Below are positions 1-31,171 of a DNA stretch of 32,000 nucleotides, piece after piece; position 1 is the first letter of the stretch, and every line of letters begins with the position of its first letter. Under the pieces are notes generated by a model. That model was not told the origin of the DNA and made no database searches. It worked only from the letters and a program-made list of their open reading frames with translations. A program made the translations under genes and the position numbers. The DNA is taken from the NCBI GenBank assembly GCA_965219535.1, contig CBDCNV010000002.1, forward strand, positions 1,410,001-1,442,000, given 5' to 3'. This stretch comes from Opitutales bacterium. Its GTDB lineage: Bacteria; Verrucomicrobiota; Verrucomicrobiia; Opitutales; PNEW01.

Positions 1-94
1 TTTCTATCGATCCCAACTCATTGAGTGGATGGAGAAAACGGAAGATCCGATGCGGACCCAATTAGGAATTTAGATTTATGATGCTGTAAAGGTG

Positions 95-145
95 CTGCCC
101 GCCCTGAGCTCGATGATATCCCTGAGCTCGTCGAAGGGTCGAAGG
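95..145 (+). repeat. I module (CCTGAGC..GTCGAAGGG type), internally duplicated copy
   Basis: CTGCCCGCCCTGAGCTCGATGATATCCCTGAGCTCGTCGAAGGGTCGAAGG. Confidence 0.65.
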
Positions 146-175
146 TAAGCAAGCCATTCATGTATCTTTCTTTCT

Positions 176-250
176 GATATCCGACGTTTGATATTTGATG
201 TTTGATGTTTGAAGTGCTTTAATTACATCGCATATCAAATATCGGATATC
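176..250. repeat. GATATC-rich hairpin (F module) copy 1
   Basis: Arms GATATCCGACGTTTGATATTTGATG (176-200) and CATCGCATATCAAATATCGGATATC (226-250) pair at 21 of 25 positions. Confidence 0.8.
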
Positions 251-279
251 GTACCGAGGACGAAGTCCGACGTCTTCCA
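251..279 (+). repeat. G-element (GTACCGA-hairpin-GACATCTTCCA) copy 1
   Basis: GTACCGA GGAC-gaa-GTCC GACGTCTTCCA. Confidence 0.9.
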
Positions 280-297
280 AATCGTATATCTTTCCCA

Positions 298-333
298 CCG
301 AACCGTTGAACCGTGAACTGTGAACGGTGAACC
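298..333 (+). repeat. Degenerate GTGAAC-type heptamer array (5 units)
   Basis: CCGAACC GTTGAAC CGTGAAC TGTGAAC GGTGAAC C. Confidence 0.6.
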
Positions 334-383
334 CTCAAATTTCGATTGCAGAAAAGGGAAGTGTTATCAATCTGGAAAACACG

Positions 384-1145
384 ATGGGGAAATTAACGGG
401 TAAAGTTGCGCTGGTAACGGGCGGGGGTCGTGGACTTGGTCGGGCTTATGCGCTGCACCTGGCGAAACTGGGGGCGGATGTGGTGGTTAATGATATCAGC
501 ATGAAAGCGCATGAAGAGTACAATGAGGAAATCGGCGCGGACTCCGTTCCGGAAGAGATAGAAGCTCTGGGTGTGCAGGGCGTGGGGATTGTCGCTGATG
601 TGTCTGATAAAAAGCAGGTCGAGAAGATGGTGGCCGATATAGACGCAAAGTTCGGCCAACTGGATATTTTGATAAACAATGCGGGTGGCGCGCTCTGGGG
701 AGCCCGGGATTTTGATCCGATGTTTGCCTTGAATTTTCACGGGACAGTCTACTGTTGCGAGGCGGTCGCGGAAATTATGAAACGGCAGGGATCGGGCAAG
801 ATTGTTAATGTGGGCAGTCAGGCTGGAATGCGGGGAGGTGAAGGCGGTGCGTATGCAACAGCGAAGGCAGCAGTGATTCATTATACCCGCTGTTTGGCGC
901 TGAGCCTGGGACCGCATCAGATAAATGTAAACTGCATTGCACCGGCCTGGATATTAAGTTCACGCGCTATTGCGGGAGGTCGAGGAGAGAAGGAGACACG
1001 TGAAAAACTGGAGGCTACTATTGCCCTCGGTCGATTGGGTGTGCCGGATGACTGTGCAAAAGTCATTGAGTTTCTGGTCACGGATTTGTCAGACTATGTG
1101 ACCGGACAGACGATCGCGGTGTGTGGTGGCAATGTGCTGTTTTAA
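384..1145 (+). CDS. SDR-family oxidoreductase (short-chain dehydrogenase/reductase)
   Basis: ORF 327..1145. The translation has the TGGGRGLG Rossmann motif, NNAG and the YATAK catalytic motif. Start placed at ATG 384 (MGKLTGKVALVTGG) because the GTG at 327 lies inside the upstream GTGAAC heptamer array; exact start uncertain. Confidence 0.85.
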   Translation: MGKLTGKVALVTGGGRGLGRAYALHLAKLGADVVVNDISMKAHEEYNEEIGADSVPEEIEALGVQGVGIVADVSDKKQVEKMVADIDAKFGQLDILINNAGGALWGARDFDPMFALNFHGTVYCCEAVAEIMKRQGSGKIVNVGSQAGMRGGEGGAYATAKAAVIHYTRCLALSLGPHQINVNCIAPAWILSSRAIAGGRGEKETREKLEATIALGRLGVPDDCAKVIEFLVTDLSDYVTGQTIAVCGGNVLF

Positions 1146-1156
1146 ACGGAGCCTAT

Positions 1157-2272
1157 ATGAAGATAACTGAGATCAAACCCATCCTCACCGATCGTTATCT
1201 ACTTGTTCGTGTCTATACCGATGCTGGCATTGTGGGCAATGGCGAATCCGGTTGTTGGGCGCATCATAAACCAGTAGCTGAGACAATCAGGGAATTCAGC
1301 AATTACTTTATTGGCAAAGATCCCCGGTTAATCGAGCACCACCACCAGGTGTTGTCGCGGCAGACCCATTTTATGGGGGCGGTGATCAGTTCAGCGCTCA
1401 GCGCAATAGATATTGCGCTGTGGGATATTTTAGGAAAGTCGGTTGACCTGCCGGTGTATCAACTCCTTGGAGGAAAATGTCGCGAGAAGGTGCGGGTTTT
1501 TAATAACGTCAATGGCGATACTCTCGATGAGCGGGTCGCGTCGGCAAATCAAGCTGTTGTCGACGGGTTCACCTCATTGAGAATGACACCATTCTTCAGT
1601 GGGTTTGAAGAAAAGGATTCTACCGAGGTAATCACGACGGCCGTAGAGATGGTGGCTGCCGTGCGCGGTGCGGTTGGCGATAAGATTGACCTGGGTCTTG
1701 AGATCCATCGGAACCTTCAGCCCGATGAAGCGATCACCCTCGCGCAGGAACTGCGACCCTTTAAACTCAAATATTATGAAGACCCTCTCGCGCCCGAATG
1801 CAATGAAGCCCTTGAATATATCGCGCGTCAAATTGACATCCCGATGGCTGTTGGTGAACGCAGTTACAATCTGTTTCAATTTAAGGAACTGATTGATAAA
1901 AAAATCGCGTCGTTTATTCGTCCTGACGTGTCTCTCGCGGGTGGCTTTACCCAGGTGAAAAAAATCGCGGGGATTGCGGAGTCTGCTTTTGTGCAAATAT
2001 TTCCTCACCTCATGGGCAGCCCGGTTAACAATGCGGCTTTCACCCATTTAGCCGCGGCCATTCCCAATTATTATGTAATGGAATCGAATGCCCATTCCGA
2101 TGAACAATTGTCGCTCGTCGATAATCCCTTTCAAGTGTGTGACGGTTATCGGGAAATTCCAGACCGCCCCGGCATCGGCGTAGAAATAGATGAAGCCCGG
2201 TGTGAAAAGACACCCTTTGTCGGCCGTCAAATTTCAGGGAGTTTCCATGAGGATGGTTCCGTTGCGCATTGA
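1157..2272 (+). CDS. Enolase-superfamily enzyme (mandelate racemase/muconate lactonizing family, sugar-acid dehydratase-like)
   Basis: ORF 1121..2272. Start moved to ATG 1157 (MKITEIKPILTDRYLLVRV...), preceded by GGAG at 1148-1151 and 11 nt after the SDR stop, so probably the same operon. N-terminal capping domain plus barrel with acidic-ligand segments (LEIHRNL, YYEDP, VGERS) typical of this superfamily. Substrate unknown. Confidence 0.85.
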   Translation: MKITEIKPILTDRYLLVRVYTDAGIVGNGESGCWAHHKPVAETIREFSNYFIGKDPRLIEHHHQVLSRQTHFMGAVISSALSAIDIALWDILGKSVDLPVYQLLGGKCREKVRVFNNVNGDTLDERVASANQAVVDGFTSLRMTPFFSGFEEKDSTEVITTAVEMVAAVRGAVGDKIDLGLEIHRNLQPDEAITLAQELRPFKLKYYEDPLAPECNEALEYIARQIDIPMAVGERSYNLFQFKELIDKKIASFIRPDVSLAGGFTQVKKIAGIAESAFVQIFPHLMGSPVNNAAFTHLAAAIPNYYVMESNAHSDEQLSLVDNPFQVCDGYREIPDRPGIGVEIDEARCEKTPFVGRQISGSFHEDGSVAH

Positions 2273-2278
2273 ATATGA

Positions 2279-2307
2279 GTCAAAAGTCGAAGGTCTAAAG
2301 TCGAAAG
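2279..2307 (+). repeat. GTCGAAR heptamer array (C module)
   Basis: GTCAAAAGTCGAAGGTCTAAAGTCGAAAG. Begins 6 nt after the enolase-family stop. Confidence 0.8.
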
Positions 2308-2322
2308 CGTGGGAGAAGAATA

Positions 2323-2339
2323 GTGAACAGTAAACAGTG
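2323..2339 (+). repeat. GTGAACA/GTAAACA heptamer array (A module)
   Basis: GTGAACAGTAAACAGTG, abutting G-element copy 2. Confidence 0.8.
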
Positions 2340-2367
2340 TACCGAGGGTATATCCCGACATCTTCCA
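2339..2367 (+). repeat. G-element copy 2
   Basis: GTACCGA GGG-tatat-CCC GACATCTTCCA. Confidence 0.9.
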
Positions 2368-2374
2368 CGGTGGA

Positions 2375-2395
2375 CAGTGAACAGTAAACAGTGAG
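2375..2395 (+). repeat. A module
   Basis: CAGTGAACAGTAAACAGTGAG. Confidence 0.8.
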
Positions 2396-2420
2396 GGATG
2401 CTATCCGTATATCCATATTA

Positions 2421-2523
2421 GTGATATCCGGAGTTTGATATCCGATATGAGAGATGTCGGTTTTTAACCTCGGTACGATTTTTGAAGTGTTAGAATTATA
2501 TCGTAAATCGCATATCGAATATC
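2421..2523. repeat. F module copy 2, interrupted by G-element copy 3
   Basis: GTGATATCCGGAGTTTGATATCCGATATGA [G3] GATTTTTGAAGTGTTAGAATTATATCGTAAATCGCATATCGAATATC. The right half is similar to 205-250. Confidence 0.75.
2451..2476 (-). repeat. G-element copy 3 (nested in the loop of a GATATC-rich hairpin)
   Basis: Reverse complement reads GTACCGA GGTT-aaa-AACC GACATCTC. Confidence 0.85.
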
Positions 2524-2552
2524 GTACCGAGGACGAAGTCCGACATCTTCCA
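2524..2552 (+). repeat. G-element copy 4
   Basis: GTACCGA GGAC-gaa-GTCC GACATCTTCCA. With its 17-nt tail it is a near-identical 46-mer to 251..296 (1 mismatch). Confidence 0.9.
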
Positions 2553-2570
2553 AATCGTATATCTTTCCCC

Positions 2571-2652: not shown

Positions 2653-2687
2653 GGAGGGAATGTTCGGTTCACCGAACACCTCCCTCC
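2653..2687. repeat. Strong hairpin enclosing the stop codon of the SBP-permease gene
   Basis: GGAGGGA..GTTCGG-ttca-CCGAAC..TCCCTCC, a two-part stem of about 13 bp. No U-tract follows on the gene strand (GTCAAAAAG array instead). Confidence 0.7.
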
Positions 2688-5600
2688 ATCCTAATCCGCG
2701 GATCGAGCCACATGAGCAGAAGGTCGCTGACAAGGGTGCCTAAGACTCCGAACAGGCTGAGTACCATGAGCATCGATCCGGCCAGATACATATCTTCTAT
2801 CATCAGGGCATCGAGCAATAACGGGCCGACGGTGGGCAAGCTGAGCACCATCGCGACAATGGCACCGCCGGAGACGAGTTGGGGAAAGATCGCGCCGATA
2901 CTGGAGATAAACGGATTGAGCGCCAGGCGCACAGGATATTTAATCAACACTTTAAAAGGTCGCAACCCTTTGGCTATCGCGGTAATAACGTAAGGTTTTC
3001 TCAACTCGTCGAGCAAGTTGCCACGCATGACCCGGATCATACTCGCGGTTCCCGTGACACCGAGGACGACAATGGGCACCCAGATGTGCTGCAGCAGGTC
3101 GACAATTTTTCCTCTTGTCCACTCCGGTTGGACAGCGTACTCGGGTGAATACAGACCCGTGACATTAATGCCCAGATACTTCGCACTCCAATAGAGCAGA
3201 ATCAGTGCGAGGAGAAAACTGGGAACACTCATCCCGATGAAACCGATCAACGTAAATAGATAATCACCCAAGGTATATTGGCGAACGGCCGAATAGATGC
3301 CGATGGGCAGAGCGACAGCCCAGGTAAATAAAATGGTGCCAAGTGAAATAAGAAAAGTAAGCAGGATGCGATCGCCTACCACTTCATTGACGGTGTTTTG
3401 GTTCTCCATCGACAATCCCATGTGACCCTGCAGTAATCCCTGGTCTTTCTTTTCAAAGGAAGTAAACCAGTAAAGCCCAAGCCAGCGGGCGTACTGCTCG
3501 GTGATGGGCTCATCGAGGTTAAAAATCTCGCGCAGCTTATCGACTTCTTTCATATCCGAGCTGCTGCCTCTTAACTGCAGCTCCATGATTTTAGTATCGA
3601 TGAAATTCCCCGGTGGCAGCTGGATGATTACAAAAGAAATGACCGAGATGATGAGCAGCGACGGAATCATGATGAGCAACCGCCTTCCGATGTAAGGGTG
3701 CCGCACCCCGGTCATTATTATACCGCAGACAAAAACACCGATAAACAAATACTTAATCAGTAATCCCAGGCGATTAACGCTTTTCGATTCACCTTCGGCG
3801 TCAACCAGACCGTAAGGGGCAGGAGTGATTTCGATTAATTCTTTTTTTATCTGCGCAATCGTTCCAGGAGAATGATAAGAATCTTCGAAATAGTAGGTTT
3901 CTAACCCCGCGTGGGCGGGTGGGTGGAAGCGATTACCATAAAACGCGAGGCGGGGAACATTTTTAAAATCGTTTTTGACCACGACCGGGTGCGGCGGCGC
4001 AGTACCTATATTGATCGACCAGACATTTTCTGCCGCGATGTCGAATATTTTATGGAATTGTTCACGTTGCGCTTCACGGGTGGTCGCACCGAAAGCGGAT
4101 TCGAGCAGTATCATCGATCGCCGTAAGGGATGATCGATCGGGGGCTCGATCCCGCCGAATTGAGTGGCTTCAGGATTGCCTGAAAGTCCCCCTCCTAAAT
4201 ACCACTTAAAATAGCCGAATGCTTGAAGACCTGTTAACCCAACAAATCTTTCAGGTCCCACAAGAGGATTGAATTCACTTTCGGTGGCCCAAATGGAAAT
4301 TTCCACTTGGCGCGAATTTTGTTCTGCGGAAAAGAGCGGTAGCGAAGGCTGACGTCGGATAGCGCGAATACCGACACGGCCCCAATCTTCGATGACGAGC
4401 TCAGTAGGCCCCTCGTCTTCCCCCTCCGGCAATGAATAATGCCAGGTCATACGCGTGCCGTCCTTAAACGTGCGGTAACCTTCTGAATCCCTGCCGGTGA
4501 GACCTATCGCATCGAGTATTTGATTGGCCTGTTCGGGCGCATAATCGGTAAAACTTTTATGCAGTTTTTCATGGTGAAAATACGATTCCCTTCCGGGTGA
4601 TAACTGCGCGGGCTCTCCCATCCCATTATAAACGATATCGATGATTTGCCGGCGGTTGATGGCGAGGGAGAGCGCCTGGCGGAAACGCTTGTCTATTAAA
4701 AGATCATGTTTCATCTGGGTGACCGGATTATCGGGATCGACCAAAAGGTTCATATTCGCATGGATGAGGTAACGCGAGCGTGTAGCGGGAAACCAGTGAT
4801 ACACTTCGTAATCATTGTCTTCTCGTTGTGACATGAGAAGGGTGTATGAGAGTTCCATATTCCAAATTAAGAAGGTGATCGCCCCGCTGGCAGCTGATAC
4901 AGGTATCAGATTATAATTTTTTACTTCGTAAAATAATTGATCCACATAGGGGAGCTGATTGCCTTCGGTATCAACGGCCCAGTAGTAGGGATTGCGGACA
5001 AAAACCTGGGGAGGGTTGGCGTTATAAGTACGATAGATCCAGGGCCAAAGTCGCGGGATTGCGGGGTTTGACCAAAGTTTCAATAAATAGTAGAGCCTAC
5101 TGCGCGACGGCAATCTTCTCTCCTCCAGGGTAGCCTCGATGAGCGCGTCATCGCCGATTACAGGGTTATACTTTTCCAGGTAATGACGGGGCGCGCAATA
5201 TTCAGTGGCTCGAGCCAGGCGTTCAAGAAATGTTCCATAAGGTTGAGGGAAAACGAACTTTACGGTGTGATCATCGATTTTTATAACATCCCCTCTCTTA
5301 CCGCCTATATCCATCCAATCGGCAGTTTCCATCCCAAGGATATTAAAAGGTATTTCTTTTTCCCACCAGTAGAGGATATCATCGACGGTAAAAGGGTGTC
5401 CATCAGACCATTTCATCCCTTTTCGCAGGTAAAAGGTCCATTCCCTCTTGTCGGGACTGGATTCCCAACCCTTGGCGACGTGAGGCACGATCGGGTAACC
5501 GAGCGCAGAGAAGCGCACTAGCGTGGATCCGGCATAATATCCCTTGACTCCACCCACTTCTGTTGGGGAACCCACCACTTGCAACCAGGTACCGCCATAG

Positions 5601-5953
5601 TTGCCGATACTGTCCACTCCTTTGAGCACCACCGGCTCGGGCCCCACACGTTCAGCAACCGGTGGCAGTTTTCCCTCCTTTACCAAGTCAGTAAAAAGGG
5701 GTGATTCGGATTTTGGATACCACGTGCTCGATTCACCCACACTGTAGTCAACATCCTGTTGAATTTGAAAAATATCATCCTCGGTGAAACTCACATCTCT
5801 TGAATTATTTATGAATTCAATTTCCTCCGGGTCATAGTAAATGGGTTCCTCTTCCAGATCCGGTTTTAAGATATCACTCCAGAGATATAGAAAACCGAAA
5901 AAGCAACAACCCGTGAGGAAGAGAAGAAGGAAGGTTTTTAAAATTTTATTCAT
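2669..5953 (-). CDS. Fused ABC-transporter protein: N-terminal TM anchor + family-5 (Dpp/Opp-type) solute-binding domain + linker TM + DppB/OppB-type permease
   Basis: 1094-aa ORF. It has a TM helix at the N-terminus (FLLLFLTGCCFFGFLYLW) followed by an SBP_bac_5-like core (VPHVAKGWESSPDKREWTFYLRKGMKWSDGHPFTVDD). An extra TM helix follows (LIKYLFIGVFVCGIIMTGV, about nt 3700-3775). The canonical DppB-like permease then starts at RRLLIMIPSLL, with EAA-loop region YVITAIAKGLRPFKVLIKYPVRLALNP and C-terminal LDPRIR. Confidence 0.9.
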   Translation of the reverse strand: MNKILKTFLLLFLTGCCFFGFLYLWSDILKPDLEEEPIYYDPEEIEFINNSRDVSFTEDDIFQIQQDVDYSVGESSTWYPKSESPLFTDLVKEGKLPPVAERVGPEPVVLKGVDSIGNYGGTWLQVVGSPTEVGGVKGYYAGSTLVRFSALGYPIVPHVAKGWESSPDKREWTFYLRKGMKWSDGHPFTVDDILYWWEKEIPFNILGMETADWMDIGGKRGDVIKIDDHTVKFVFPQPYGTFLERLARATEYCAPRHYLEKYNPVIGDDALIEATLEERRLPSRSRLYYLLKLWSNPAIPRLWPWIYRTYNANPPQVFVRNPYYWAVDTEGNQLPYVDQLFYEVKNYNLIPVSAASGAITFLIWNMELSYTLLMSQREDNDYEVYHWFPATRSRYLIHANMNLLVDPDNPVTQMKHDLLIDKRFRQALSLAINRRQIIDIVYNGMGEPAQLSPGRESYFHHEKLHKSFTDYAPEQANQILDAIGLTGRDSEGYRTFKDGTRMTWHYSLPEGEDEGPTELVIEDWGRVGIRAIRRQPSLPLFSAEQNSRQVEISIWATESEFNPLVGPERFVGLTGLQAFGYFKWYLGGGLSGNPEATQFGGIEPPIDHPLRRSMILLESAFGATTREAQREQFHKIFDIAAENVWSINIGTAPPHPVVVKNDFKNVPRLAFYGNRFHPPAHAGLETYYFEDSYHSPGTIAQIKKELIEITPAPYGLVDAEGESKSVNRLGLLIKYLFIGVFVCGIIMTGVRHPYIGRRLLIMIPSLLIISVISFVIIQLPPGNFIDTKIMELQLRGSSSDMKEVDKLREIFNLDEPITEQYARWLGLYWFTSFEKKDQGLLQGHMGLSMENQNTVNEVVGDRILLTFLISLGTILFTWAVALPIGIYSAVRQYTLGDYLFTLIGFIGMSVPSFLLALILLYWSAKYLGINVTGLYSPEYAVQPEWTRGKIVDLLQHIWVPIVVLGVTGTASMIRVMRGNLLDELRKPYVITAIAKGLRPFKVLIKYPVRLALNPFISSIGAIFPQLVSGGAIVAMVLSLPTVGPLLLDALMIEDMYLAGSMLMVLSLFGVLGTLVSDLLLMWLDPRIRMEGGVR

Positions 5954-5983
5954 CTAAAGGAATAAGCTCATTGTGAGCTTATT

Positions 5984-6010
5984 CAGTGAACAGTAAACAG
6001 TGAACAGTGG
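5984..6010 (+). repeat. A module upstream of SBP-permease gene 1
   Basis: CAGTGAACAGTAAACAGTGAACAGTGG. Confidence 0.85.
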
Positions 6011-6037
6011 AGAATCAGTGTTAAATTTTAGTTGAGA

Positions 6038-6111
6038 GGTGGAGCGGGCTGTCCCCAGCGCGCTTACTTTTTAAAAATTTATATAAACGTGCTGGGACAG
6101 CCCGTTCCACC
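6038..6111. repeat. Long hairpin (O module pair): about 24-bp GC-rich stem, 25-nt AT-rich loop
   Basis: GGTGGAGCGGGCTGTCCCCAGCGCG ...CTTACTTTTTAAAAATTTATATAAA... CGTGCTGGGACAGCCCGTTCCACC. Confidence 0.85.
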
Positions 6112-6130
6112 TAATACGCTTTTGCGTCTT

Positions 6131-6185
6131 TACCTAAAACTTGACACTTAAAACCTAACACGCGCGATGACTTCCGTCATCGCGC
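6131..6185 (-). terminator. Hairpin containing the stop codon + U-rich heptamer array 3' of the SBP-permease paralogue
   Basis: GCGCGATGA-cttccg-TCATCGCGC (6162-6185, 9-bp stem; the stop codon is in one arm). On the transcript it is followed by GUGUUAGGUUUUAAGUGUCAAGUUUUAGG. Confidence 0.45.
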
Positions 6186-9100
6186 TCCTCCTTCCATCCT
6201 AATCCTTGGATCGAGCCACATGAGCAAGAGGTCACTGACGAGGGTGCCTAAGACACCGAGCAGGCTGAGTACCATGAGCATCGATCCGGCCAGATACATA
6301 TCTTCTTTCATCAGGGCATCGAGCATTAAAGGCCCGACCGTTGGAAGGCTGAGCACCATCGCTACTATGGCGCCTCCTGAGATGAGTTGGGGAAAGATTC
6401 CACCGATGCTGGAAATGAATGGATTGAGCGCCAGGCGCACGGGATATTTCAGCAACAGCTTAAAGGGTCGCAGCCCCTTGGCCATCGCAGTAATGACATA
6501 AGGTTTTTTCAGCTCGTCCAACAGGTTACCGCGCATGACACGGATCATACCCGCGGTTCCAGTGACACCCAGAACGACAATCGGCACCCAGATGTGCTGC
6601 AACAAGTCGACAATCTTTCCTCGGGACCATCCAGGTTCAATCGCGTATTCGGGTGAAAATAGACCCGAGATATTAATCCCAAGATATTTCCCACTCCAAT
6701 AAAGTAGAATCAACGCAAGAAGAAAGCTGGGAATGCTCATCCCGATAAATCCGATCAAGGTGAAAAAATAATCACTCAAAGTATACTGGCGAACAGCTGA
6801 ATAGATGCCAATCGGCAAAGCGATCGCCCAGGTAAATAAAATCGTACCGAGTGAAATAAGAAAAGTGAGAAGGATGCGATCCCCAACCACTTCGTTGACC
6901 GTGTTCTGGTTCTCCATCGATAATCCCAGGTGACCCTGCAGTAAGCCCTGGTCTTTTTTTTCAAAGGAAGTAAACCAATTAAGGCCGAGCCAGTGCGCGT
7001 ATCGTTTAGCGATGGGCTTATCGAGGAGAAAGATCTCGCGCAGCTCTTCGATCTCATCGCTATTTATTTGACCTCCTTTTAATTGCAGCTCCAGGATTTT
7101 GGTCTCAATGAAATTCCCCGGAGGAAGCTGGATGATTACAAAAGAGATGACCGAGATGATAAGAAGGGTCGGGCCCAAAATGAGCAGCCGCCTTCCTATG
7201 TAGGGGTGCCTTACTCCAATCATTACCACTCCGCAGGTGAAAACACCGATAAATAAATACTTAATCAATTTTGCCAGGTGAATAACACTTTTCGATTTGC
7301 TCTTATCCTCCACTAGACCGTAAGGAGCGGGGGTTATTTCGAGTATTTCCTTTTTGATCTGAGCAACGGCTCCAGGTGATTCATCAGACTCTTCGAAGTA
7401 GTAGGTTTCTATTCCAGCCTGGGATGGCGGATTAAAGTAATTGCCATAGAATGCATTGCGCGGAATATTTTTAAAACCGTTTTTGACTACAACCGGGTGT
7501 GGTTGCGAGGTGCTTATATTGATCGACCAGACATTTTCCGCCGCAATGTCGAACACTTTATTGAAATGCTCACGTTGCGCTTCGCGCGTGGCCGCACCGA
7601 AAGCTGCTTCGGCTATTTCCATCGATCGCCTCATGGGATGATCGATCGGGGGCTCGATTCCTCCGAGTTGAGCAGCATCAGGATTGCCTGAAAGTCCACC
7701 TCTCAAATACCAGATATAGTAGCCGTATGCTTGGAGTCCCGTTAACCCGATAAAACGCGAGTATCCCAAAATAGGGTTGAATTCACTTTCTGAGGGCCAA
7801 ATGGAAAATTCCAATTGGCGTGATGTTTGTTTAAAGTAAAAAGAGAAAGCGCTGGCTGTTGTCGTATAGCGCGAATACCGACACGAGCCCAATCTTCAAT
7901 GATGAGCTCAGTCGGCCCTTCGAGCTCCCCCTCCGGGAGTGTAAAATTCCAGACCATGCGCGTACCATCCTTAAATGTGCGGTAGCCTCGCGCATCCCTA
8001 CCGGTTAGCCCTATCGCATCAAGCAGTTGATTGGCCCGGTCGGGCGCATAGTCGGTAAAGCTTTTATGTAATTTTTCATGGTGGAAAAACGATTCCCTCC
8101 CTGGTGATAACTGCGCGGGTTCCCCCACCCCATTGAATACGATGTCGATAATTTGCTGGCGATTGATGGCAAGGGAGAGCGCCTGGCGAAAGCGCTTGTC
8201 TATTAATAGATCATGTTTCATTTGGGTAACCGGATTATCAGGGTCGACCCTAAGATTTTGATTCGGATAGATGAGAAACCGCGAGCGTGTAGCAGGAAAC
8301 CAGTGATACACTTCATAGTCGTTTGTTTCGCGTTGTGACATGAGCAGGATATAGTTTAAATCCATACTTTCAAAAATCTTAAAGGTAATGGCCCCGTTGG
8401 CCGCTGCGATGGGAATCAAATTATAGTTTTTAACGTCGACAAATAATTGGTCCACATAGGGAAGCTGATTACCTTCGGTATCGACTGCCCAGTAGTAGGG
8501 ATTGCGGACAAATACCTGGGGAGGGTTGGCTTTATAAGTATGATATATCCAGGGCCATAGCCGTGGGTGTTCGGGATTGTTTGTTAATTTTAATATTACG
8601 TATAGGCTTCTACGCGATGGCAGTCTTCTCGCCTCGAGGGTAGCTTCGATGAGAGAATCATCACCGAGTTTCGGATGGTATTTTTCCAGGTAATGCCGCG
8701 GTGAGCAGAAATCACTGGATTTAGCCATGAAATCAAGAAACGATCCATAAGGTTGAGGAAAAATGAACTTTACGGTATAATCATCAATTTTTACAGTTTC
8801 TCCCACCTTTCCCCCCACTTTCATCCACTGGGGCGGTAAACTTCCCGGATATACAGGATCGGTTTCTCCATATAGACGGTAAAGGATATCGTCGGCAGTA
8901 AAAGGGTGACCATCGGACCACTTCATGCCTCGGCGCAAATAAAAAACCCATTCCCTCTTGTCGGGACTGGATTCCCAACCCTTGGCCACATGAGGCACAA
9001 TCGGGTAACCGAGCGGAGACCAGCGAACAAGTGTGGAACCTGAAGAGAAGGAAACAATTTTACGTATATCATTTTGTGATCCTGCCACTTCAAACCAGGT

Positions 9101-9463
9101 GCCGCCATAGCTACCGATACCTTCCACACCTTTAAACACTACCGGCTCGGGTCCTACCCGCTCTGCCACCAGGGGTAATTTGCCCTCGGCTACAAGTTCA
9201 GATAAGAGGGGTGACTCGGCTTGTGGATACCACGACGCGGTTTTCCCTTCACTGTAATCAACATCCAGCTGAATTTTGAAAAGATCATTTTCGGTGAAAC
9301 TCACATCTCTAGAATTTTCTATAAATTCAATTTCTTCCGGGTCATAGTAAATGGGTTCCTCTTCCAGATCCGGTTTTAGGATATCACTCCAAAGATAAAG
9401 AAATCCGAAAAAACAAAAACCCGTGAGGAGGAGGAGAAGGAAGGTTTTTAAAATTTTAATCAT
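6177..9463 (-). pseudogene. Frameshifted tandem paralogue of the fused SBP-permease gene
   Basis: ORFs 7742..9463 and 6177..7892 are collinear with the 1094-aa neighbour (roughly 75-80% aa identity by eye) but lie in different frames. The frame switch maps to the A5 run at 7838-7842 (T5 on the coding strand). Adding one T restores ...LFYFKQTSRQLEFSIW..., matching ...LFSAEQNSRQVEISIW... in the paralogue. The 3287-nt span is not a multiple of 3. This could be a real pseudogene, a homopolymer sequencing error or a slippage site. Confidence 0.8.
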
Positions 9464-9494
9464 CTAAAGGAATAAGCTCATCATGGGATGAATT

Positions 9495-9520
9495 CAGTGA
9501 ACAGTAAACAGTGAACAGTG
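9495..9520 (+). repeat. A module upstream of SBP-permease gene 2
   Basis: CAGTGAACAGTAAACAGTGAACAGTG. An inverted partner lies at 9740-9770. Confidence 0.85.
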
Positions 9521-9662
9521 AGAAAGTAGTGTCTAAGGTCAAAGGTCGGGGATGAATGGATGGTAGGAATGATGGAAGATTGAAATTCCCTTCGGTTCAA
9601 CACCAATTCTCCATACTTCCATACATCCAATATTCCATTTAAACCGCTGAACGGTGAGTCTA

Positions 9663-9686
9663 GGGTACAGCCCGACATCTTCCACC
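9663..9686 (+). repeat. G-element copy 5 (5' flank diverged)
   Basis: GGG-tacag-CCC GACATCTTCCACC, with TCTA in place of CCGA. Confidence 0.6.
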
Positions 9687-9694
9687 CTGAATTT

Positions 9695-9770
9695 CCTTAA
9701 CCTAAATCTTAACACTTAAAACGCGCGAAAACGCTTCCCCACTGTTCACTGTTTACCGTTCAATGTTCAC
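9695..9770 (-). repeat. Composite A-H-D module copy 4 (inverted)
   Basis: Reverse complement reads GTGAACATTGAACGGTAAACAGTGAACAGTGGGGAAGCGTTTTCGCGCGTTTTAAGTGTTAAGATTTAGGTTAAGG. Confidence 0.8.
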
Positions 9771-9780
9771 TAATTTTCTT

Positions 9781-9807
9781 CCTTTTATGACCTTTTGACT
9801 TTTTGAC
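9781..9807 (-). repeat. B module
   Basis: CCTTTTATGACCTTTTGACTTTTTGAC, followed by hairpin GCGCGC-tgat-GCGCGC. Confidence 0.8.
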
Positions 9808-9823
9808 GCGCGCTGATGCGCGC
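9808..9823. repeat. GC hairpin GCGCGC-tgat-GCGCGC
   Basis: Perfect 6-bp stem next to a B module. Confidence 0.7.
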
Positions 9824-9945
9824 TTGTGCTATATTTTTAATATATACCGTGATAAATTGTATAAATGCGATTGAGCATATTATTAAAATATGAATAATAA
9901 ATTAGATGTGTTTTTCAATTTCACCAACTAACTGATTTTTTACCC

Positions 9946-10827: not shown

Positions 10828-10845
10828 AAGAGCGGTTGATTAGGA

Positions 10846-10875
10846 GTCGAAAGTCAAAGGTCGAAAGTCGAAGGT
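10846..10875 (+). repeat. C module 3' of PhyH paralogue 1
   Basis: GTCGAAAGTCAAAGGTCGAAAGTCGAAGGT. Confidence 0.85.
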
Positions 10876-10957
10876 AGAGATCAAAAAAAGAGAAAGTCAG
10901 AAGACCAGACAACCGGTTCAGCAGTTCTTCACTGACGCTCTCGACACTTCACTTTCC

Positions 10958-11010
10958 CACTTAACACCTAAAACTTAAAACCTAAAACGCGCGAAGCCGC
11001 TACTTCGCGC
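10958..11010 (-). terminator. Hairpin + U-rich tract 3' of the adenylate-kinase-like gene
   Basis: GCGCGAAG-ccgcta-CTTCGCGC (10989-11010, 8-bp stem) starts at the stop codon. On the transcript it is followed by GUUUUAGGUUUUAAGUUUUAGGUG (the GTKTTAR heptamer array). Confidence 0.5.
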
Positions 11011-11711: not shown

Positions 11712-11732
11712 TTCGCTTCCATAGGAAGCGAA
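11712..11732 (-). terminator. Hairpin TTCGCTTCC-ata-GGAAGCGAA between the IS end and the adk-like promoter region
   Basis: Perfect 9-bp stem. In the minus direction it is followed by CCGACUUUCAUUGAUUUUAG (moderately U-rich). The function is a guess. Confidence 0.3.
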
Positions 11733-11737
11733 AGCGA

Positions 11738-11768
11738 GGGTTCAGGGTTCAGGGTTCAGGGTTCAGGG
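11738..11768 (+). repeat. CAGGGTT heptamer array (E module) = G-quadruplex-type motif (GGG-TTCA)x4-GGG
   Basis: GGG runs at 11738, 11745, 11752, 11759 and 11766. The IS left end starts within or at the last run. Confidence 0.9.
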
Positions 11769-13141
11769 TACAACCAGGACATGGTTTACAGATTTAGATC
11801 AAGACATGGTTTACACTTTGTGAGGGATGCTGAACGGTAATCGGGTTATATAGTTAAGTTAATGTTATGCGGTTTTAGAGGTTTGGCTGGCATTGTTGGG
11901 GCCGCAAGCGGCCCCAATGAAAGCAGCCGTTGAAAGGTCAATCTGACCGATTCTGAGAGTGGCAAAGTAAACATCGAAGTGTACCGTGTCTAGTGGTTTT
12001 AGTCCAACGCTCCAACCGGCGAGGGCGGTGGAGATAGGAATCTGGAAGCCATCGAGTTTGATAGACCCGCTTTTTGAGACCCGGCGAGTCATCAAATCAT
12101 AGCTGATATCGGCAGGAGTGCCACCGTAAGGATGAGAGCTGTGCTGATAGATTTCAGAGGGCGTGCTCATGGCAAGAGCCGCATGGGGGCGTTCTTCATT
12201 GAAGGTCTTGCGCCACAGATCGAAGGCCACCTGTTGGGTGCGAAGATCGTCCTGGGCATGTTTTTGCAACTCCTCTTTGATATCGCGATGGAGACGCTCA
12301 TGGGCACCGTTATCCTGGGGTTTACCCGGACGTCCACGCTCGAGATTGATCCCTAAGGCCAGCCACCAGGCCGCCAGTTTGCTCAGGCCCAGGACCGCAT
12401 TGGCACTGGCAAAGGGACTGCCGTTGTCGCTGCGGATGCAAGCGGGAAGTCCATAGCGTTCAAAGAGTTTTGTGAAGCATTCACGCACCGCTTCGCTACG
12501 GGCTGAACTGAGCACCCGCACCTCTAATACATAGCGGCTCCATTCATCCCGTACCGTCAAAGGTTCACAACGGTTGCCATCAACGGTGTGCCACCACCCT
12601 TTGAAGTCTACGCTCCACACTTCGTTACAGCCACTGGCCTTGACGCTGCGGTAAAGGCGTCCGCTTTTTTGAGCGCTTCTGCGCCGACGCTTTTGCACCA
12701 GTCCCGCACGTTCCAAGACCCGTTTCACGCTCGAGTCTGAGGGGGCCTTCCCGTAACGCCTCTGGTAAAGCTCGCGGATCTTGTAGGGGCCCCACGTCGG
12801 GTGATGATGCTTGAGTTTGATCAGCGTACATACTACTGATTCGGATAGTTCCTGAACACTTCCATGCGGTCGGCGTGAGCGCTCGTGCAACCCCTCCATC
12901 CCTTCGCTCAGGAAGCGCTTCTTCCATTTATACCCTGTCGGTCGGCTGATCCCGTAGTCTTCACACAGCTCGTTCATCTTTACTCCCGGTTGCATCGATT
13001 CCAGGGCGAATTGGTATCTTTGGTCCATTTTATTTGTTTCCTTCCATGACATCATACCCCTTACTTAGCATCCTTCTTTCTTTGGCAATCTGTAAAGGAT
13101 GTCCTGAACCTTTTGTGTAAAGAATGTCTTGAACCTATACC
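11767..13141 (-). mobile_element. IS481-like insertion sequence, complete copy (about 1375 bp)
   Basis: The left boundary is defined by where identity with the second copy begins (11767 = 31273). Imperfect terminal inverted repeats: GGTACAACCAGGACATGGTTTACAG (left) vs the reverse complement of the right end, GGTATAGGTTCAAGACATTCTTTACAC. Each end carries two 17-nt motifs CARGACATNNTTTACAS (11775-11791, 11800-11816, 13090-13106, 13115-13131). No clear target-site duplication seen. Confidence 0.8.
11865..13055 (-). CDS. IS481-family-like DDE transposase (HTH + rve integrase core)
   Basis: 396-aa single ORF. N-terminal HTH (ELCEDYGISRPTGYKWKKRF). DDE-type core segments WSVDFKGWW, IRSDNGSPF, HERLHRDIKEE. 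The true start may be the internal Met at MDQRY. Confidence 0.85.
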   Translation of the reverse strand: MMSWKETNKMDQRYQFALESMQPGVKMNELCEDYGISRPTGYKWKKRFLSEGMEGLHERSRRPHGSVQELSESVVCTLIKLKHHHPTWGPYKIRELYQRRYGKAPSDSSVKRVLERAGLVQKRRRRSAQKSGRLYRSVKASGCNEVWSVDFKGWWHTVDGNRCEPLTVRDEWSRYVLEVRVLSSARSEAVRECFTKLFERYGLPACIRSDNGSPFASANAVLGLSKLAAWWLALGINLERGRPGKPQDNGAHERLHRDIKEELQKHAQDDLRTQQVAFDLWRKTFNEERPHAALAMSTPSEIYQHSSHPYGGTPADISYDLMTRRVSKSGSIKLDGFQIPISTALAGWSVGLKPLDTVHFDVYFATLRIGQIDLSTAAFIGAACGPNNASQTSKTA

Positions 13142-13144
13142 GGT

Positions 13145-13173
13145 TGGAAGATGTCGGGCTATGCCCTCGGTAC
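13145..13173 (-). repeat. G-element copy 6
   Basis: Reverse complement reads GTACCGA GGGC-ata-GCCC GACATCTTCCA. It starts 4 nt from the right end of the IS. Confidence 0.9.
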
Positions 13174-13175
13174 GA

Positions 13176-13202
13176 GTGTCGGGAAAATACCAGTAAACAG
13201 TG
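13176..13202 (+). repeat. M module
   Basis: GTGTCGGGAAAATACCAGTAAACAGTG. Confidence 0.8.
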
Positions 13203-13253
13203 GTGAATTGCGTATAATTCTAAACGGATTTTACTATCTTTCCCTGAACCCTG
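13196..13253 (+). repeat. Q module
   Basis: AACAGTGGTGAATTGCGTATAATTCTAAACGGATTTTACTATCTTTCCCTGAACCCTG, roughly 70% similar by eye to 28639-28702. Confidence 0.55.
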
Positions 13254-13281
13254 TACCGAGAGCGTAGCTCGACATCTTCCA
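13253..13281 (+). repeat. G-element copy 7
   Basis: GTACCGA GAGC-gta-GCTC GACATCTTCCA. Confidence 0.9.
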
Positions 13282-13299
13282 CCCTGAACCCTGAACCCT
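13282..13299 (-). repeat. E module (C-strand)
   Basis: CCCTGAACCCTGAACCCT. Overlaps the stop codon of the isomerase gene. Shorter CCCTGAACCCTG copies lie at 13242, 27099 and 27139. Confidence 0.8.
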
Positions 13300-16951: not shown

Positions 16952-16980
16952 TGGAAGATGTCGGGGTATACCCTCGGTAC
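16952..16980 (-). repeat. G-element copy 8
   Basis: Reverse complement reads GTACCGA GGG-tata-CCC(C) GACATCTTCCA. Confidence 0.9.
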
Positions 16981-18035: not shown

Positions 18036-18174
18036 TATCTTTCAGCAGTTACCTGTTTTGTTTAATTGCGGATGGAAATATATCTTTCCCCCATTGCTTT
18101 GAGAGACGTTGTGATTAAAAACGAATGCTATTTAACAGAATGCACCATCATCGGTTCACTGAGGCAACACATAA

Positions 18175-18202
18175 GGTGTCGGGGAGAAGCGCTAGCGCGC
18201 GT
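18175..18202 (+). repeat. N module (contains palindrome GCGCTAGCGC)
   Basis: GGTGTCGGGGAGAAGCGCTAGCGCGCGT. Confidence 0.8.
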
Positions 18203-18225
18203 CAAAAAGTCAAAAGGTCAAAAAG
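18201..18225 (+). repeat. B module, left arm of a large palindrome
   Basis: GTCAAAAAGTCAAAAGGTCAAAAAG. Confidence 0.9.
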
Positions 18226-18244
18226 GGGGAGATTCTTGTAAATA

Positions 18245-18282
18245 GTAAACAGCCGCCGACGTTTCACTATGGCGTGCCAAGG
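18245..18282 (+). repeat. J module copy 1
   Basis: GTAAACAGCCGCCGACGTTTCACTATGGCGTGCCAAGG. Confidence 0.75.
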
Positions 18283-18313
18283 GTTTCAGAAAATGCGCGT
18301 CAGCGTTCTTCTA

Positions 18314-18346
18314 CCTTTTGACCTTTTGACTTTTTGACCTTTTGAC
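18314..18346 (-). repeat. B module, right arm of a large palindrome
   Basis: CCTTTTGACCTTTTGACTTTTTGACCTTTTGAC. Confidence 0.9.
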
Positions 18347-18521
18347 GCACGCTTTCTCGTGCTACCGCGCTTAATTCTGAGAAATAATTAGATTTTTCTC
18401 GAAAATATGTTTATATAGATTTACGAATCTAATTCTATCCACTTAACTGGCATTCGAGGGAAGCTCCACAGAATGCCTGAAGGCATAAAGAATTCAAATC
18501 TCAAAATATAAAAGGCCGCTA

Positions 18522-19367
18522 ATGAACAAGGAAACTTTCTCAAACCTTAAATTGTTGCTCTGCTCGGGCATATTAATCCTCACATTGGCCAGTTTAACGG
18601 GTTGCGCCAAAAAAGAGGAACCGACAGTTACCGAAGCTGAACAACCAACTGCAGAGCAAGCGATCGCCGAAGCGGAGCAAGCGATCGCCGAAGTAAAAGC
18701 GGAAATACCGGCTGCCCTTGCCGAAGCAGAGCAAGCGATCGCCGAAGTTAAAGCGGAACATCCGACTGCCGATGCAGAGCATCCGACCGAAGTAGCGGAA
18801 CACCCGACCGAAGAACACCCCACTGAAGAAGCGGAACACCCGGTCGCAGAAGCAGGAGAAGAGCATCTGACTGAGGAACATCCGACCGAAGAAGCAGAGC
18901 ATCCGACCGAGGAACACCCAGCTGAAGAAGCAGAACATCCGGAACACTCTGATGAAGAAGCGGAACATCCAGAACATCCGGCTGAAGAAAGCGATCAGAC
19001 CCAGGTACAACCCCAGCGTGAAGTGGGATTGGCAGACATTTCAGATGGCATCAAAAAGCATATCGCTGAATTATCCTCCCAATCCAGTGACGGTATGTTT
19101 CACGCAGATTATGACGGTACGGACCTCGCATTAACCCTCGTAAAGGTACACGATGAAAAATTGGCTGTGTTAGGTAGCGGTGCTTACTTTGCCTGCACCG
19201 ATCTCAAGGCCACTGACGGCAGCATCTACGACCTGGATTTTTTCCTCACCGGTGAGGCCGGTAATATGAAAGTTACCGAAACTGCGGTCCATAAAGACAA
19301 TGGTACGCCACTTTACGGTTGGAAACAAAGGGATGATGGCGTCTGGATAAAAAGTCCCTTGCAATAA
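18522..19367 (+). CDS. Lipoprotein with acidic His-rich repeat region and unknown C-terminal domain
   Basis: 281-aa ORF. Signal peptide with lipobox LASLTGC (Cys28). Residues about 38-158 are low complexity: three AEQAIAE units, then 12 EHP and 1 EHL triplets (13 His) embedded in Glu/Ala/Thr. A C-terminal domain of about 120 aa has no motif I recognise. Confidence 0.8.
   Translation: MNKETFSNLKLLLCSGILILTLASLTGCAKKEEPTVTEAEQPTAEQAIAEAEQAIAEVKAEIPAALAEAEQAIAEVKAEHPTADAEHPTEVAEHPTEEHPTEEAEHPVAEAGEEHLTEEHPTEEAEHPTEEHPAEEAEHPEHSDEEAEHPEHPAEESDQTQVQPQREVGLADISDGIKKHIAELSSQSSDGMFHADYDGTDLALTLVKVHDEKLAVLGSGAYFACTDLKATDGSIYDLDFFLTGEAGNMKVTETAVHKDNGTPLYGWKQRDDGVWIKSPLQ
18633..18995 (+). repeat. In-frame coding repeats of the lipoprotein (AEQAIAE x3, EHPxEE-type x about 12)
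   Basis: Nucleotide repeats GAGCAAGCGATCGCCGAAG (x3, each containing GCGATCGC) and GAACA(T/C)CCGACCGAAGAAGC-type units. They also generate spurious antisense ORFs 18494..18823 and 18594..19010. Confidence 0.85.
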
Positions 19368-20407: not shown

Positions 20408-20436
20408 TTGTTCTTCATTGAATTATGGAAAAGAGA

Positions 20437-20475
20437 CATGTCGATCTTTTTGTAATAGAATAGGTGCCGGGTGTC
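20437..20475 (-). repeat. L module upstream of the transglutaminase-like gene
   Basis: CATGTCGATCTTTTTGTAATAGAATAGGTGCCGGGTGTC, 29 nt from the start codon. Confidence 0.8.
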
Positions 20476-20497
20476 GGGAAAATACCAGTGAACAGTG
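20471..20497 (+). repeat. M module
   Basis: GTGTCGGGAAAATACCAGTGAACAGTG (26 of 27 identical). Confidence 0.8.
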
Positions 20498-20552
20498 AAC
20501 AGTGAACAGTGAAAGAGCGCTGACGCGCGTGTTAAGTATTAAGTGTTAGGTA
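20486..20552 (+). repeat. Composite A-H-D module copy 1 (GTGAACA array + small GC hairpin + GTKTTAR array)
   Basis: (CAGTGAA)x3 CAGTGAAAGAGCGCTGACGCGCGTGTTAAGTATTAAGTGTTAGGTA. Confidence 0.85.
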
Positions 20553-20588
20553 TCGAAATCGGGATCGATATCGGTATCGGGTTTCGGG
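20549..20588 (+). repeat. P module (ATCG-rich)
   Basis: Shares the 19-nt core GGTATCGAAATCGGGATCG with 23541-23559. Confidence 0.65.
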
Positions 20589-20598
20589 GAGGATCAGT

Positions 20599-20627
20599 GC
20601 ACCGAGGGTATAGCCCGACATCTTCCA
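20599..20627 (+). repeat. G-element copy 9
   Basis: GCACCGA GGG-tatag-CCC GACATCTTCCA. Confidence 0.9.
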
Positions 20628-20727
20628 CAGAACCATCCATTATTCCAATCTTCCATTCTTCCTCGTTCTTACAATTCGAATCCTTTTTCCTTTCATTAAA
20701 CAATTAAAAGACGTTAAGCTCCACCTC

Positions 20728-22230: not shown

Positions 22231-22231
22231 T

Positions 22232-22246
22232 GCGCGCGGGCGCGCG
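22232..22246. repeat. GC hairpin directly after the MlrC-like stop codon
   Basis: GCGCG-cggg-CGCGC, followed by an A-rich B module, so not a canonical intrinsic terminator. Confidence 0.55.
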
Positions 22247-22269
22247 TCAAAAGGTCAAAAAGTAAACAC
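22246..22269 (+). repeat. B module 3' of the MlrC-like gene
   Basis: GTCAAAAGGTCAAAAAGTAAACAC, preceded by the GC hairpin at 22232-22246. Confidence 0.8.
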
Positions 22270-22280
22270 TCCGGTCTCAC

Positions 22281-22312
22281 CACTTTCGACTTTCGACCTT
22301 TGACTTTAGACC
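22281..22312 (-). repeat. C module
   Basis: CACTTTCGACTTTCGACCTTTGACTTTAGACC on the plus strand. Confidence 0.85.
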
Positions 22313-22364
22313 ATTCAATCTCTGATTGAATGTCCCACCGTTCAGCGGTTCTGGTCCTCCGGTT

Positions 22365-22398
22365 TGGAAGATGTCGTTCCGCGACTGCGGAACTCGGA
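22365..22398 (-). repeat. G-element copy 10 (long-stem variant)
   Basis: Reverse complement reads TCCGA GTTCCGC-agtc-GCGGAAC GACATCTTCCA. It begins 9 nt after the PhyH-3 stop, in gene sense. Confidence 0.8.
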
Positions 22399-22406
22399 AC
22401 CGCCTT

Positions 22407-23288: not shown

Positions 23289-23318
23289 CTGATCATTACA
23301 GAGAAATCAATAAGGGAT

Positions 23319-23357
23319 CATGTCGATCTTTTTGTAATTGAATAGGTGTCTGGTGTC
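23319..23357 (-). repeat. L module upstream of PhyH paralogue 3
   Basis: CATGTCGATCTTTTTGTAATTGAATAGGTGTCTGGTGTC (36 of 39 identical to the other copy), 30 nt from the start codon. Confidence 0.8.
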
Positions 23358-23394
23358 CCTTCGACTTCGCTCAGGGCAGGCAGGGTGTCGAGGG
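23345..23394 (-). repeat. I module, long copy (inverted)
   Basis: A 39-nt core (23352-23390) is the exact reverse complement of the core of 17069-17129. Confidence 0.85.
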
Positions 23395-23412: not shown

Positions 23413-23422
23413 GTTTAAAAAA

Positions 23423-31167: not shown

Positions 31168-31171
31168 GAGA

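Follow-up and report, generated by a model that had tools for sequence, protein, structure and literature searches.

A 27-nt hairpin block behaves like a very small mobile DNA element in a marine Opitutales bacterium

Introduction

To our knowledge, the spread of DNA units of non-coding size is explained in outline for repetitive extragenic palindromes (REPs) and is unexplained for the small dispersed repeats (SDRs) of cyanobacteria. SDR4, SDR5 and SDR6 of Nostoc punctiforme, said to have been described by Elhai et al. 2008 in Genome Res 18:1484, are reportedly dispersed units of about 21–27 nt with hairpin potential. They are said to sit inside one another, inside tandem heptamer repeats and inside modules resembling miniature inverted-repeat transposable elements (MITEs). 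Their mobility was reportedly deduced from filled versus empty sites; they encode no enzyme and are not known to have a mechanism. Here, we describe a hairpin element, G, in 32,000 nt of an Opitutales bacterium (assembly GCA_965219535.1, contig CBDCNV010000002.1, positions 1,410,001 to 1,442,000). This whole stretch is called the window. In its behaviour, G resembles the very smallest of mobile DNA elements, akin to REPs and cyanobacterial SDRs, and its host is a marine Opitutales bacterium.

Insertion sequences (ISs) of the IS200/IS605 group move by 'peel and paste'. The process is hairpin-dependent and strand-specific, makes no target duplication and inserts by a short specific sequence. The two hairpin ends of such an element differ from each other, and tnpA (and tnpB) is usually present between them. 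Nunvar 2010 is reportedly among the sources on REPs and REP-associated tyrosine transposases (RAYTs). REPs, and the close inverted doublets called REPINs, occur with RAYTs (Bertels & Rainey 2011, PMC3116915; Di Nocera 2013, PMC3733652). The palindromic stem of a REP is about 5–13 bp, and Opitutus terrae, placed in Verrucomicrobia, is reported to be REP-rich (Di Nocera 2013, PMC3733652). MITEs span 70–300 bp, end in inverted repeats and duplicate their target (PMC3733652).

Results

Two sites in the F module are filled or empty

The window holds three copies of a hairpin module, F1, F2 and F3. From these, a first-pass annotation had proposed that G is a discrete insertion unit, and the strings that it quoted are present at the coordinates it gave. 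Aligned with MAFFT, the three copies (160–310, 2395–2585 and 28700–28830) contain exactly two gaps, of 26 columns each. The first is at the foot of the module, which is filled in F1 (251–279) and F2 (2524–2552) and empty in F3 near 28803/28804. The second is in the loop, which is filled in F2 only (2448–2476, minus strand) and empty in F1 near 199/200 and F3 near 28751/28752. Foot and loop had both been called correctly. The annotation had also equated the block limits with those of G. This holds to within 1–3 nt: the indels are 26 nt, against a conserved block of 29 nt, of which the core stands; its first G and last A also belong to the target. F3 had been described as lacking the element. 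Both compared sites are indeed empty, but a long G variant lies 13 nt further on (28826–28885).

The same two 26-column gaps recur in a set of 11 F copies from the window genome and from OY829953.1 and CBDANS01, two metagenome-assembled genomes (MAGs) of Opitutales bacteria. All four states occur. Neither site is filled in seven copies, which are spread over several backbone lineages. Only the foot is filled in F1, only the loop in F4 (L117:1615–1775, about 17 kb upstream of the window on the same contig) and both in F2 and the CBDANS01 copy at L099. To give these four states, insertion or excision must have recurred or F copies must have recombined, and the states do not choose among these. 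The doubly filled F2 composite recurs in CBDANS01 beside unrelated genes, at a non-orthologous place.

The block is present or absent in unrelated contexts

G is present or absent as a unit at no fewer than five unrelated kinds of site: the F foot, the F loop, a module K, a long palindromic element (in either arm) and heptamer arrays of two types. Relative to the target sequence, the block is always oriented the same way. For the arrays, CCCTGAA and CAGTGAA, filled and empty versions also exist. Gain or loss as a unit, nesting included, had been proposed; the four states of F and the pairs in K, palindrome and arrays strengthen the case for it. The reading of G as a discrete insertion unit is supported.

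The cleanest pair comes from the long palindromic element (GTCATTGCGAGG...CCTCGCAATGAC, 100–160 nt). The filled copy reads ...GCCGACTGCGGC, then the block TACCGAGCGCAGCGACATCTTCC, then ATTCCAGGGG. The empty copy reads ...GCCGACTGCGGC followed directly by AATCCAGGG, and the flanks align without gaps. Hence, the G block runs from TACC to YYCC (TTCC in a short statement of the same pairs). G occurs in neither, one or both arms of the element, with equal orientation relative to local sequence in each arm. At this one site, more than 10 different hairpins of 7–17 nt occur between constant flanks.

The palindromic element is nearly perfect, common in related genomes, not found in the window and has no Rfam match. 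Among the hosts of G it is a preferred one, with a single fixed position for G that may be in the left or the right arm. Copies include L041:2794–2955, L026:5365–5519, L051:6792–6896, L058:6462–6565, L063:5988–6088 and L010:4310–4413.

Both window copies of K hold a reverse G copy, and the OY829953.1 copy lacks that G. K is 135 nt and AT-rich; flanked by inverted G, it becomes a MITE-like composite of about 195 nt. The composite occurs twice in the window (26874–27066 and 28826–29042) and has a relative at L075:840–1110. In the OY829953.1 copy, G is absent at the left edge and at the internal site, and a long G (L075:858–921) lies 3' of the module. The long variant at window positions 28826–28885 is 98% identical to it.

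At the F foot, the F loop, K and both kinds of array, the filled site has the 27-nt block minus one target base. Hence, the net length difference is 26. The filled/empty pairs revealed neither a target duplication nor, beside the block, any direct repeats through which slippage could delete it. Empty sites read (C/T)G or GC before the insertion point and A after it, often with ATC within 1–3 nt. A look for a conserved target motif had been suggested by the first-pass annotation, and G before and A after the junction, with ATC, is our candidate. The rule is tentative because F itself consists of ATC-containing heptamers. The conserved flanks of G occur in at least eight unrelated contexts, unique sequence included, so several non-homologous insertions are needed.

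Constant arms enclose a variable hairpin

The G consensus is GTACCGA, a 4-bp stem with a 3-nt loop, and GACATCTTCCA; the conserved block is 29 nt. The unit itself can be written TACCGA-(short hairpin)-GACATC-YYCC. It measures 27 nt, and 23 nt when the hairpin is a mini-hairpin of 7 nt. Its end sequences, TACCGA and GACATCTTCC, do not form an inverted repeat. Across 31 distinct variants, positions A3, C5–A7, C18–C21, T23, C24 and A29 are invariant. Clade sequence totalling about 397 kb contains 63 strict copies, with a 5' end of GTAC in 43, CTAC in 19 and ATAC in one. In the CTAC class, GTAG is found on the opposite strand only, 3' of the hairpin.

The hairpin between the arms measures 7 nt (GCGCAGC), 11 nt (the usual size), 16–17 nt (for example at 22365–22400) or 42 nt (28826–28885, where a second hairpin module is nested inside). 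The stem covaries over 4 bp, or 3 bp in the GGGTATA subtype, with compensated variants GGAC/GTCC, GAGC/GCTC, GGGC/GCCC and GGTT/AACC. Pairing extends to 91.9% of stem cells and 14 cells are altered on both sides, a result matched by 0/500 shuffles; slid controls gave 24–53% pairing. Two positions either side of the stem could make non-canonical G-A pairs. The flanks of G are better conserved than the host repeat. Between F2 and L099, 52/52 G columns are identical, compared with 75/99 for the F backbone (p = 1.3e-5). Decayed copies (L117:1784–1812, L117:1601–1629 and window 9662–9684) have a 5' arm that reads GAATCGAGGG or AGTCTAGGG and not GTACCGAGG. Since such mutants occur, copies decay once the arm sequence is gone.

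Known RNA or ribozyme identities were rejected. The GA-(stem)-GA core is hammerhead- or k-turn-like by eye, but CUGAUGA/GAAA, or a 3-nt bulge with closing helix, is missing. Rfam 15 covariance models gave no match in the window at the gathering threshold, and no relevant match in 69 kb of related loci at E ≤ 1. A P-nucleotide-like palindromic footprint was also rejected, as G stems are not templated by adjacent flanks. IS481 ends were considered as an origin, and their only likeness to G is the common GTAC.

Copies of G in the window

The pattern TACCGAGG-N(3–33)-GACRTC has 10 matches in the window, compared with 0.00 expected. A covariance model built from the 31 distinct copies found 13 full and three variant copies, 16 in total, all intergenic and outside long open reading frames (ORFs). 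These are listed in Table 1. Inverted pairs with spacing below 200 nt account for 8/16 copies (2448/2524, 13145/13253, 26874/27038 and 28826/29014). The F2 pair can form full-length mutual pairing as single-stranded DNA (−27.7 kcal/mol, z −4.95). Filling of the F2 loop therefore also makes a REPIN-like doublet.

Table 1. F modules and G copies in the window
Feature	Position	Strand	Evidence
F1 hairpin module; loop site empty near 199/200	170–300	+	DNA fold −16.7 kcal/mol, z −2.5
G, GGACGAAGTCC subtype, foot of F1 (filled base site)	251–279	+	covariance model, 43.9 bits
G (GGGTATATCCC) within CAGTGAA heptamer array	2339–2367	+	covariance model
F2 module, both sites filled; same composite at CBDANS01 L099:2660–2850	2418–2570	+	alignment
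G (GGTTAAAAACC), F2 loop (filled loop site)	2448–2476	-	alignment, covariance model
G (GGACGAAGTCC), foot of F2; pairs with 2448–2476 copy	2524–2552	+	alignment, fold, covariance model
Partial degenerate G, 5' part mutated	9662–9684	+	25.7 bits, model positions 7–29
G (GGGCATAGCCC); IS481 copy ends 4 nt from G 3' end	13145–13173	-	covariance model
G (GAGCGTAGCTC) in CCCTGAA array; inverted pair with 13145–13173 copy	13253–13281	+	covariance model
G (GGGTATACCCC)	16952–16980	-	covariance model
G beginning GCACC (GGGTATAGCCC)	20599–20627	+	covariance model
G variant, longer hairpin TTCCGC-AGTC-GCGGAA between conserved flanks	22365–22400	-	20.6 bits
G, left edge of K module copy 1	26874–26902	+	covariance model
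G, CTACC...CCCCCA class, inside K copy 1; site empty in OY829953.1 (L075)	27038–27066	-	
G (GAGCGTAGCTC) in CCCTGAA array	27110–27138	+	covariance model
G shorter by one base (GGGTATATCC)	27150–27177	+	covariance model
F3 module, base and loop sites empty	28720–28825	+	alignment, fold
Long G variant: normal hairpin plus 31 extra nt (nested second hairpin module), conserved flanks	28826–28885	+	
G, CTACC class, inside K copy 2	29014–29042	-	covariance model

Hairpin subtype follows the flanking repeat

All seven copies of subtype GGACGAAGTCC sit between ..ATCG and AAATCG, where they make up 7/10 of the F-like copies. Subtypes GAGCGTAGCTC and GGGCGTAGCCC account for 17/21 copies in CCCTGAA arrays, between CCCTG and ACCC. 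Subtype GGGTATAxCCC adjoins ..GTG, and GCGCAGC lies within the long palindromic element. Next to recognisable heptamers, 22 copies are on the same strand and 0 on the opposite strand. Since subtype follows flank, co-amplification with the host fits better than frequent free transposition. With the recurrence of F2 elsewhere, this indicates that many copies spread with a host module and not by separate insertion. We read this as a few true insertions of G, made in unrelated contexts, after which the host modules or arrays carried it along as they spread. Most G copies probably multiplied together with host modules. Selection, and possibly homogenisation too, would act on the G sequence.

G in related genomes and strains

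The genes of the window are 93–95% DNA-identical to OY829953.1 (4.49 Mb) at 1.96–1.976 Mb. The window sequence is also in ENA assembly ERZ25067264, contig ctg828868 (117 kb). In a collection scan with TACCGA-N11-GACATCTTCC, true copies, among the matches listed, occur only in OY829953.1 and CBDANS01. This pattern is too loose: most of the at least 104 stretches are chance matches in coding DNA, and the single Poribacteria match is also due to chance. A metagenome contig (L112, 88% identity) has G copies as well. Orthologous loci at ≤82% amino-acid identity have neither G nor heptamer arrays, and no copy was found in the viral contigs searched.

Presence or absence in relatives had been put forward as a check, and orthologous spacers proved too diverged for it. 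Upstream of the SDR-family and MR_MLE-family genes (SDR/MR_MLE), the module mosaics of the window, OY829953.1 and L112 are entirely different, so a site-by-site orthologous comparison of filled and empty sites is impossible. Other spacers (window 55–331 against L052:7616–7809 and 10875–10945 against L069) have different modules, or whole-module indels of about 70 nt. At 93–95% gene identity, only 20–50 nt beside the genes are conserved in orthologous spacers. Near-identical strains were compared through L120 and L122, which come from two samples, are 99.95–99.98% identical over 21 kb and hold about eight G-like copies; no G difference was found there.

L120 and L122 have only two length differences. 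One, in the second aligned block, is a lone gap of 1 nt. The other, inside an IS3-family element, is about 29 nt in L120 (15351–15379) for 1 nt in L122 (15351), or about 36 versus 8 nt by eye. The L120 version is hairpin-like and possibly an error of a 5x assembly.

A RAYT gene is flanked by a different repeat

A tblastn search with E. coli RayT gave no match in the first 253 kb. A further 210 kb, added from the same two assemblies by IS481 transposase look-up, gave one. The match (L121:7449–7886) is a 145-aa ORF with the HUH motif PDHLHVI and the tyrosine motif YIRYNPV. Its score for Pfam Y1_Tnp is 24.7 bits (cut-off 23). For the NCBIfam REP-associated tyrosine transposase it is 78.1 bits (cut-off 80), covering positions 5–145 of 146. 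Homologues are named RayT by JGI, and the organism-labelled ones are mostly from Verrucomicrobia, including several Opitutaceae genera. The contig belongs to the same assembly and bears the identical IS481 transposase. Orthologues are 92% (L127), 74% (L132) and 70% (L128) identical. The L121 gene is annotated merely as a 64-aa fragment.

The four genes have inverted copies of another repeat, W, on their flanks. One example is AACGCGGT-AGGGAC-ACCGCGTT-CCACC, with an 8-bp stem, an AGGGAC loop and a CCACC tail. A RAYT homologue at 58% is flanked by a covarying W-like hairpin. G and W have in common only the 3' tail (T)TCCA(CC). The right enzyme class is present in the clade, yet the association that defines REP–RAYT systems does not hold for G.

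The W regions flanking the L121 gene are 7355–7387, 7930–7958 and 7984–8046, and W stems covary across RAYT orthologues (L127, L128, L132 and L133). Three W copies lie in the window, at 6038–6055 (−), 6094–6111 (+) and 29117–29134 (+); two of them are an inverted pair.

Discussion

Like a REP, G is short and extragenic, forms a hairpin, bears an unpaired tag that is conserved and ends in a CCA-type tail. Compensated stem subfamilies, inverted doublets and use as an IS insertion target are further likenesses. With 16 copies in 32 kb, and the 63 strict copies in about 397 kb, it falls in the 20–40-bp, extragenic, high-copy range of REPs. Its four window pairs are REPIN-like, being close inverted copies that fold into one long hairpin. 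G differs from REPs in its stem of 3–4 bp, in its tag (GTAC/CTAC, not GTAG or CGTC) and in the repeat that flanks the RAYT loci, which is W. In behaviour, G is most like what is said of the SDRs: it is shorter than 30 nt, nested in repeats and heptamer arrays, and has filled and empty paralogous sites. However, it occurs in Verrucomicrobiota, not Cyanobacteria, and its unpaired flanks are conserved while the hairpin varies over 7–42 nt. Its sequence is presumably unrelated to those of SDR4, SDR5 and SDR6. The hairpin, strand specificity, lack of duplication and short target are common to G and IS200/IS605 elements, but G is a single 27-nt hairpin unit. MITEs (Correia/NEMIS, ERIC, RUP and Nezha) are, like G, non-autonomous, intergenic and hairpin-forming, and the K+G and F+G composites are MITE-sized. 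G itself was rejected as a MITE because it is 27–29 nt, without terminal inverted repeats or duplication. A full-text literature search gave no account of such repeats in Verrucomicrobia.

We give about even odds (roughly 0.5) to G being a non-autonomous, REP/SDR-like miniature hairpin element, moved in trans by a HUH/Y1 transposase initially and then spread with its hosts. For the mover, we infer an enzyme of the HUH/Y1 class. The first insertions would have been made in trans, on single-stranded DNA, by a tyrosine transposase of the RAYT or IS200 kind. Such an enzyme would recognise the small hairpin and the conserved unpaired flanks. It would cut on both sides and rejoin the unit beside a short target, between G and A, often with ATC following. 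Most of the later amplification would come about as host modules and same-heptamer arrays recombine, undergo gene conversion or slip.

Several observations weigh against this model. The predicted free energy of a single G hairpin, with its stem of 3–4 bp, is no better than that of shuffled sequence. Hence, the case for structure rests on covariation, not thermodynamics. Hairpin subtype is nearly perfectly tied to flank type, and recombination between F copies could yield all four F states. At L121, L127, L132 and L128, the repeat that flanks the RAYT gene is W instead of G, and the roughly 1 kb around each of these loci is free of G. About 400 kb of clade sequence, a sample of at most 10% of the genome, yielded no second RAYT. 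The comparison of L120 with L122 gave no G polymorphism.

Much of this would be expected if G were immobile alone and simply a building block of modular intergenic repeats. Presence and absence would then arise by gene conversion, unequal recombination or template switching. Conservation would reflect a role in the cell, for example in binding a protein or as a DNA or RNA hairpin. The subtype–flank tie (GGACGAAGTCC in 7/10 F-like copies, GAGCGTAGCTC/GGGCGTAGCCC in 17/21) and the recurrence of the whole F2 composite in another species fit this explanation. So do the wholly different spacer mosaics at 93–95% gene identity and the lack of strain-level G polymorphism, and the four coexisting F states are a classic sign of recombination. 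However, the same flanks occur in the eight or more unrelated contexts, unique sequence among them, and the more than 10 hairpins at one palindrome site are hard to obtain by conversion from a single donor. We regard an immobile block as unlikely, but as a contender to be taken seriously.

An undescribed kind of mover, for G-type elements and cyanobacterial SDRs alike, is a doubtful prospect. This would be sequence-specific insertion of a unit of less than 30 nt into single-stranded targets, with one target base replaced and no duplication, using only a tiny hairpin between two conserved unpaired arms. A RAYT might do this on a repeat that is not its cognate one, or no dedicated transposase might be involved. 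If true, spacers of distant phyla would have a general mode of evolution in common, reached convergently: tandem heptamer arrays with hairpin inserts below 30 nt. The presence of a RAYT with a different cognate repeat makes movement of a non-cognate mini-hairpin by RAYT, versus another mechanism, testable.

It is improbable that G is a functional RNA motif, selected as RNA and with its spread secondary, whether as a hairpin that stabilises transcripts or guides their processing or as the target of an RNA-binding protein. C-GNA-G triloops are a motif stable in DNA, which counts against an RNA role. Stem covariation does include pairs of the G-U type on the plus strand, and the positions beside the stem are tandem G-A/A-G. 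Several copies, among them 2339, 26874 and 16952, closely follow a gene and are in its sense orientation. G-T pairing in REP stems has been taken as a hint of RNA function (Di Nocera et al., PMC3733652), and we count this in favour. However, A-C mismatches, which are G-T on the other strand, are about as common as G-T. Both orientations occur in one spacer, divergent and convergent spacers alike hold copies, and even at E ≤ 1 Rfam offers no match. Least probable of all is an ancestral filled state with empty sites made by repeated precise hairpin deletion (replication slippage or hairpin processing): hairpins can be deletion-prone, paralogue comparison gives no direction and the first-pass annotation had allowed for loss, but 7/11 F copies in several backbone lineages are doubly empty, the block lacks flanking direct repeats for slippage, and G is less diverged than the host backbone, which suggests a younger or constrained sequence and not an old decaying relic.

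The clade provides a clean second system in a phylum unrelated to cyanobacteria, with sharp ends, many filled/empty pairs and an exchangeable hairpin (7–42 nt). The repeat system also explains full turnover of spacers while the genes stay 93–95% identical.

Further observations on the window

An IS481-family element occupies 11767–13141 and 31273–32000, and the two are identical over the 300 nt compared. Its 387-aa transposase is found on 12 contigs of two assemblies, with 3 of 10 places listed on the contig of the window. The copy at 11767–13141 sits exactly between G 13145–13173 (−) and a CCCTGAA array (11731–11766). Because it lies between G and the array that normally follows G, it must have entered exactly where G meets its 3' neighbour.

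Almost all of the longer spacers are mosaics in which short tandem arrays of heptamers or octamers mix with small hairpin modules. These spacers are 1–326, 2273–2668, 5954–6176, 9464–9945, 10828–11009, 13056–13297, 18036–18521, 20408–20727, 22231–22406, 23289–23691, 26855–27289, 28501–29166 and 31168–31370. Array units include CAGTGAA, CCCTGAA, GTCGAAA, TTTTGAC(C), CTAAAAC, CACCCGA and GATATCN. The arrays resemble the short tandemly repeated repetitive (STRR) sequences of heterocystous cyanobacteria.

Positions 2669–5953 and 6177–9463 are a tandem duplicate of an SBP_bac_5/BPD_transp_1 ABC-transporter fusion, with 74–86% DNA identity. The second copy is apparently split into two ORFs, and OY829953.1 seemingly has a single copy there. 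In-frame tandem repeats of 54 nt and about 36–63 nt lie at 18666–18942, inside the ORF at 18522–19367.

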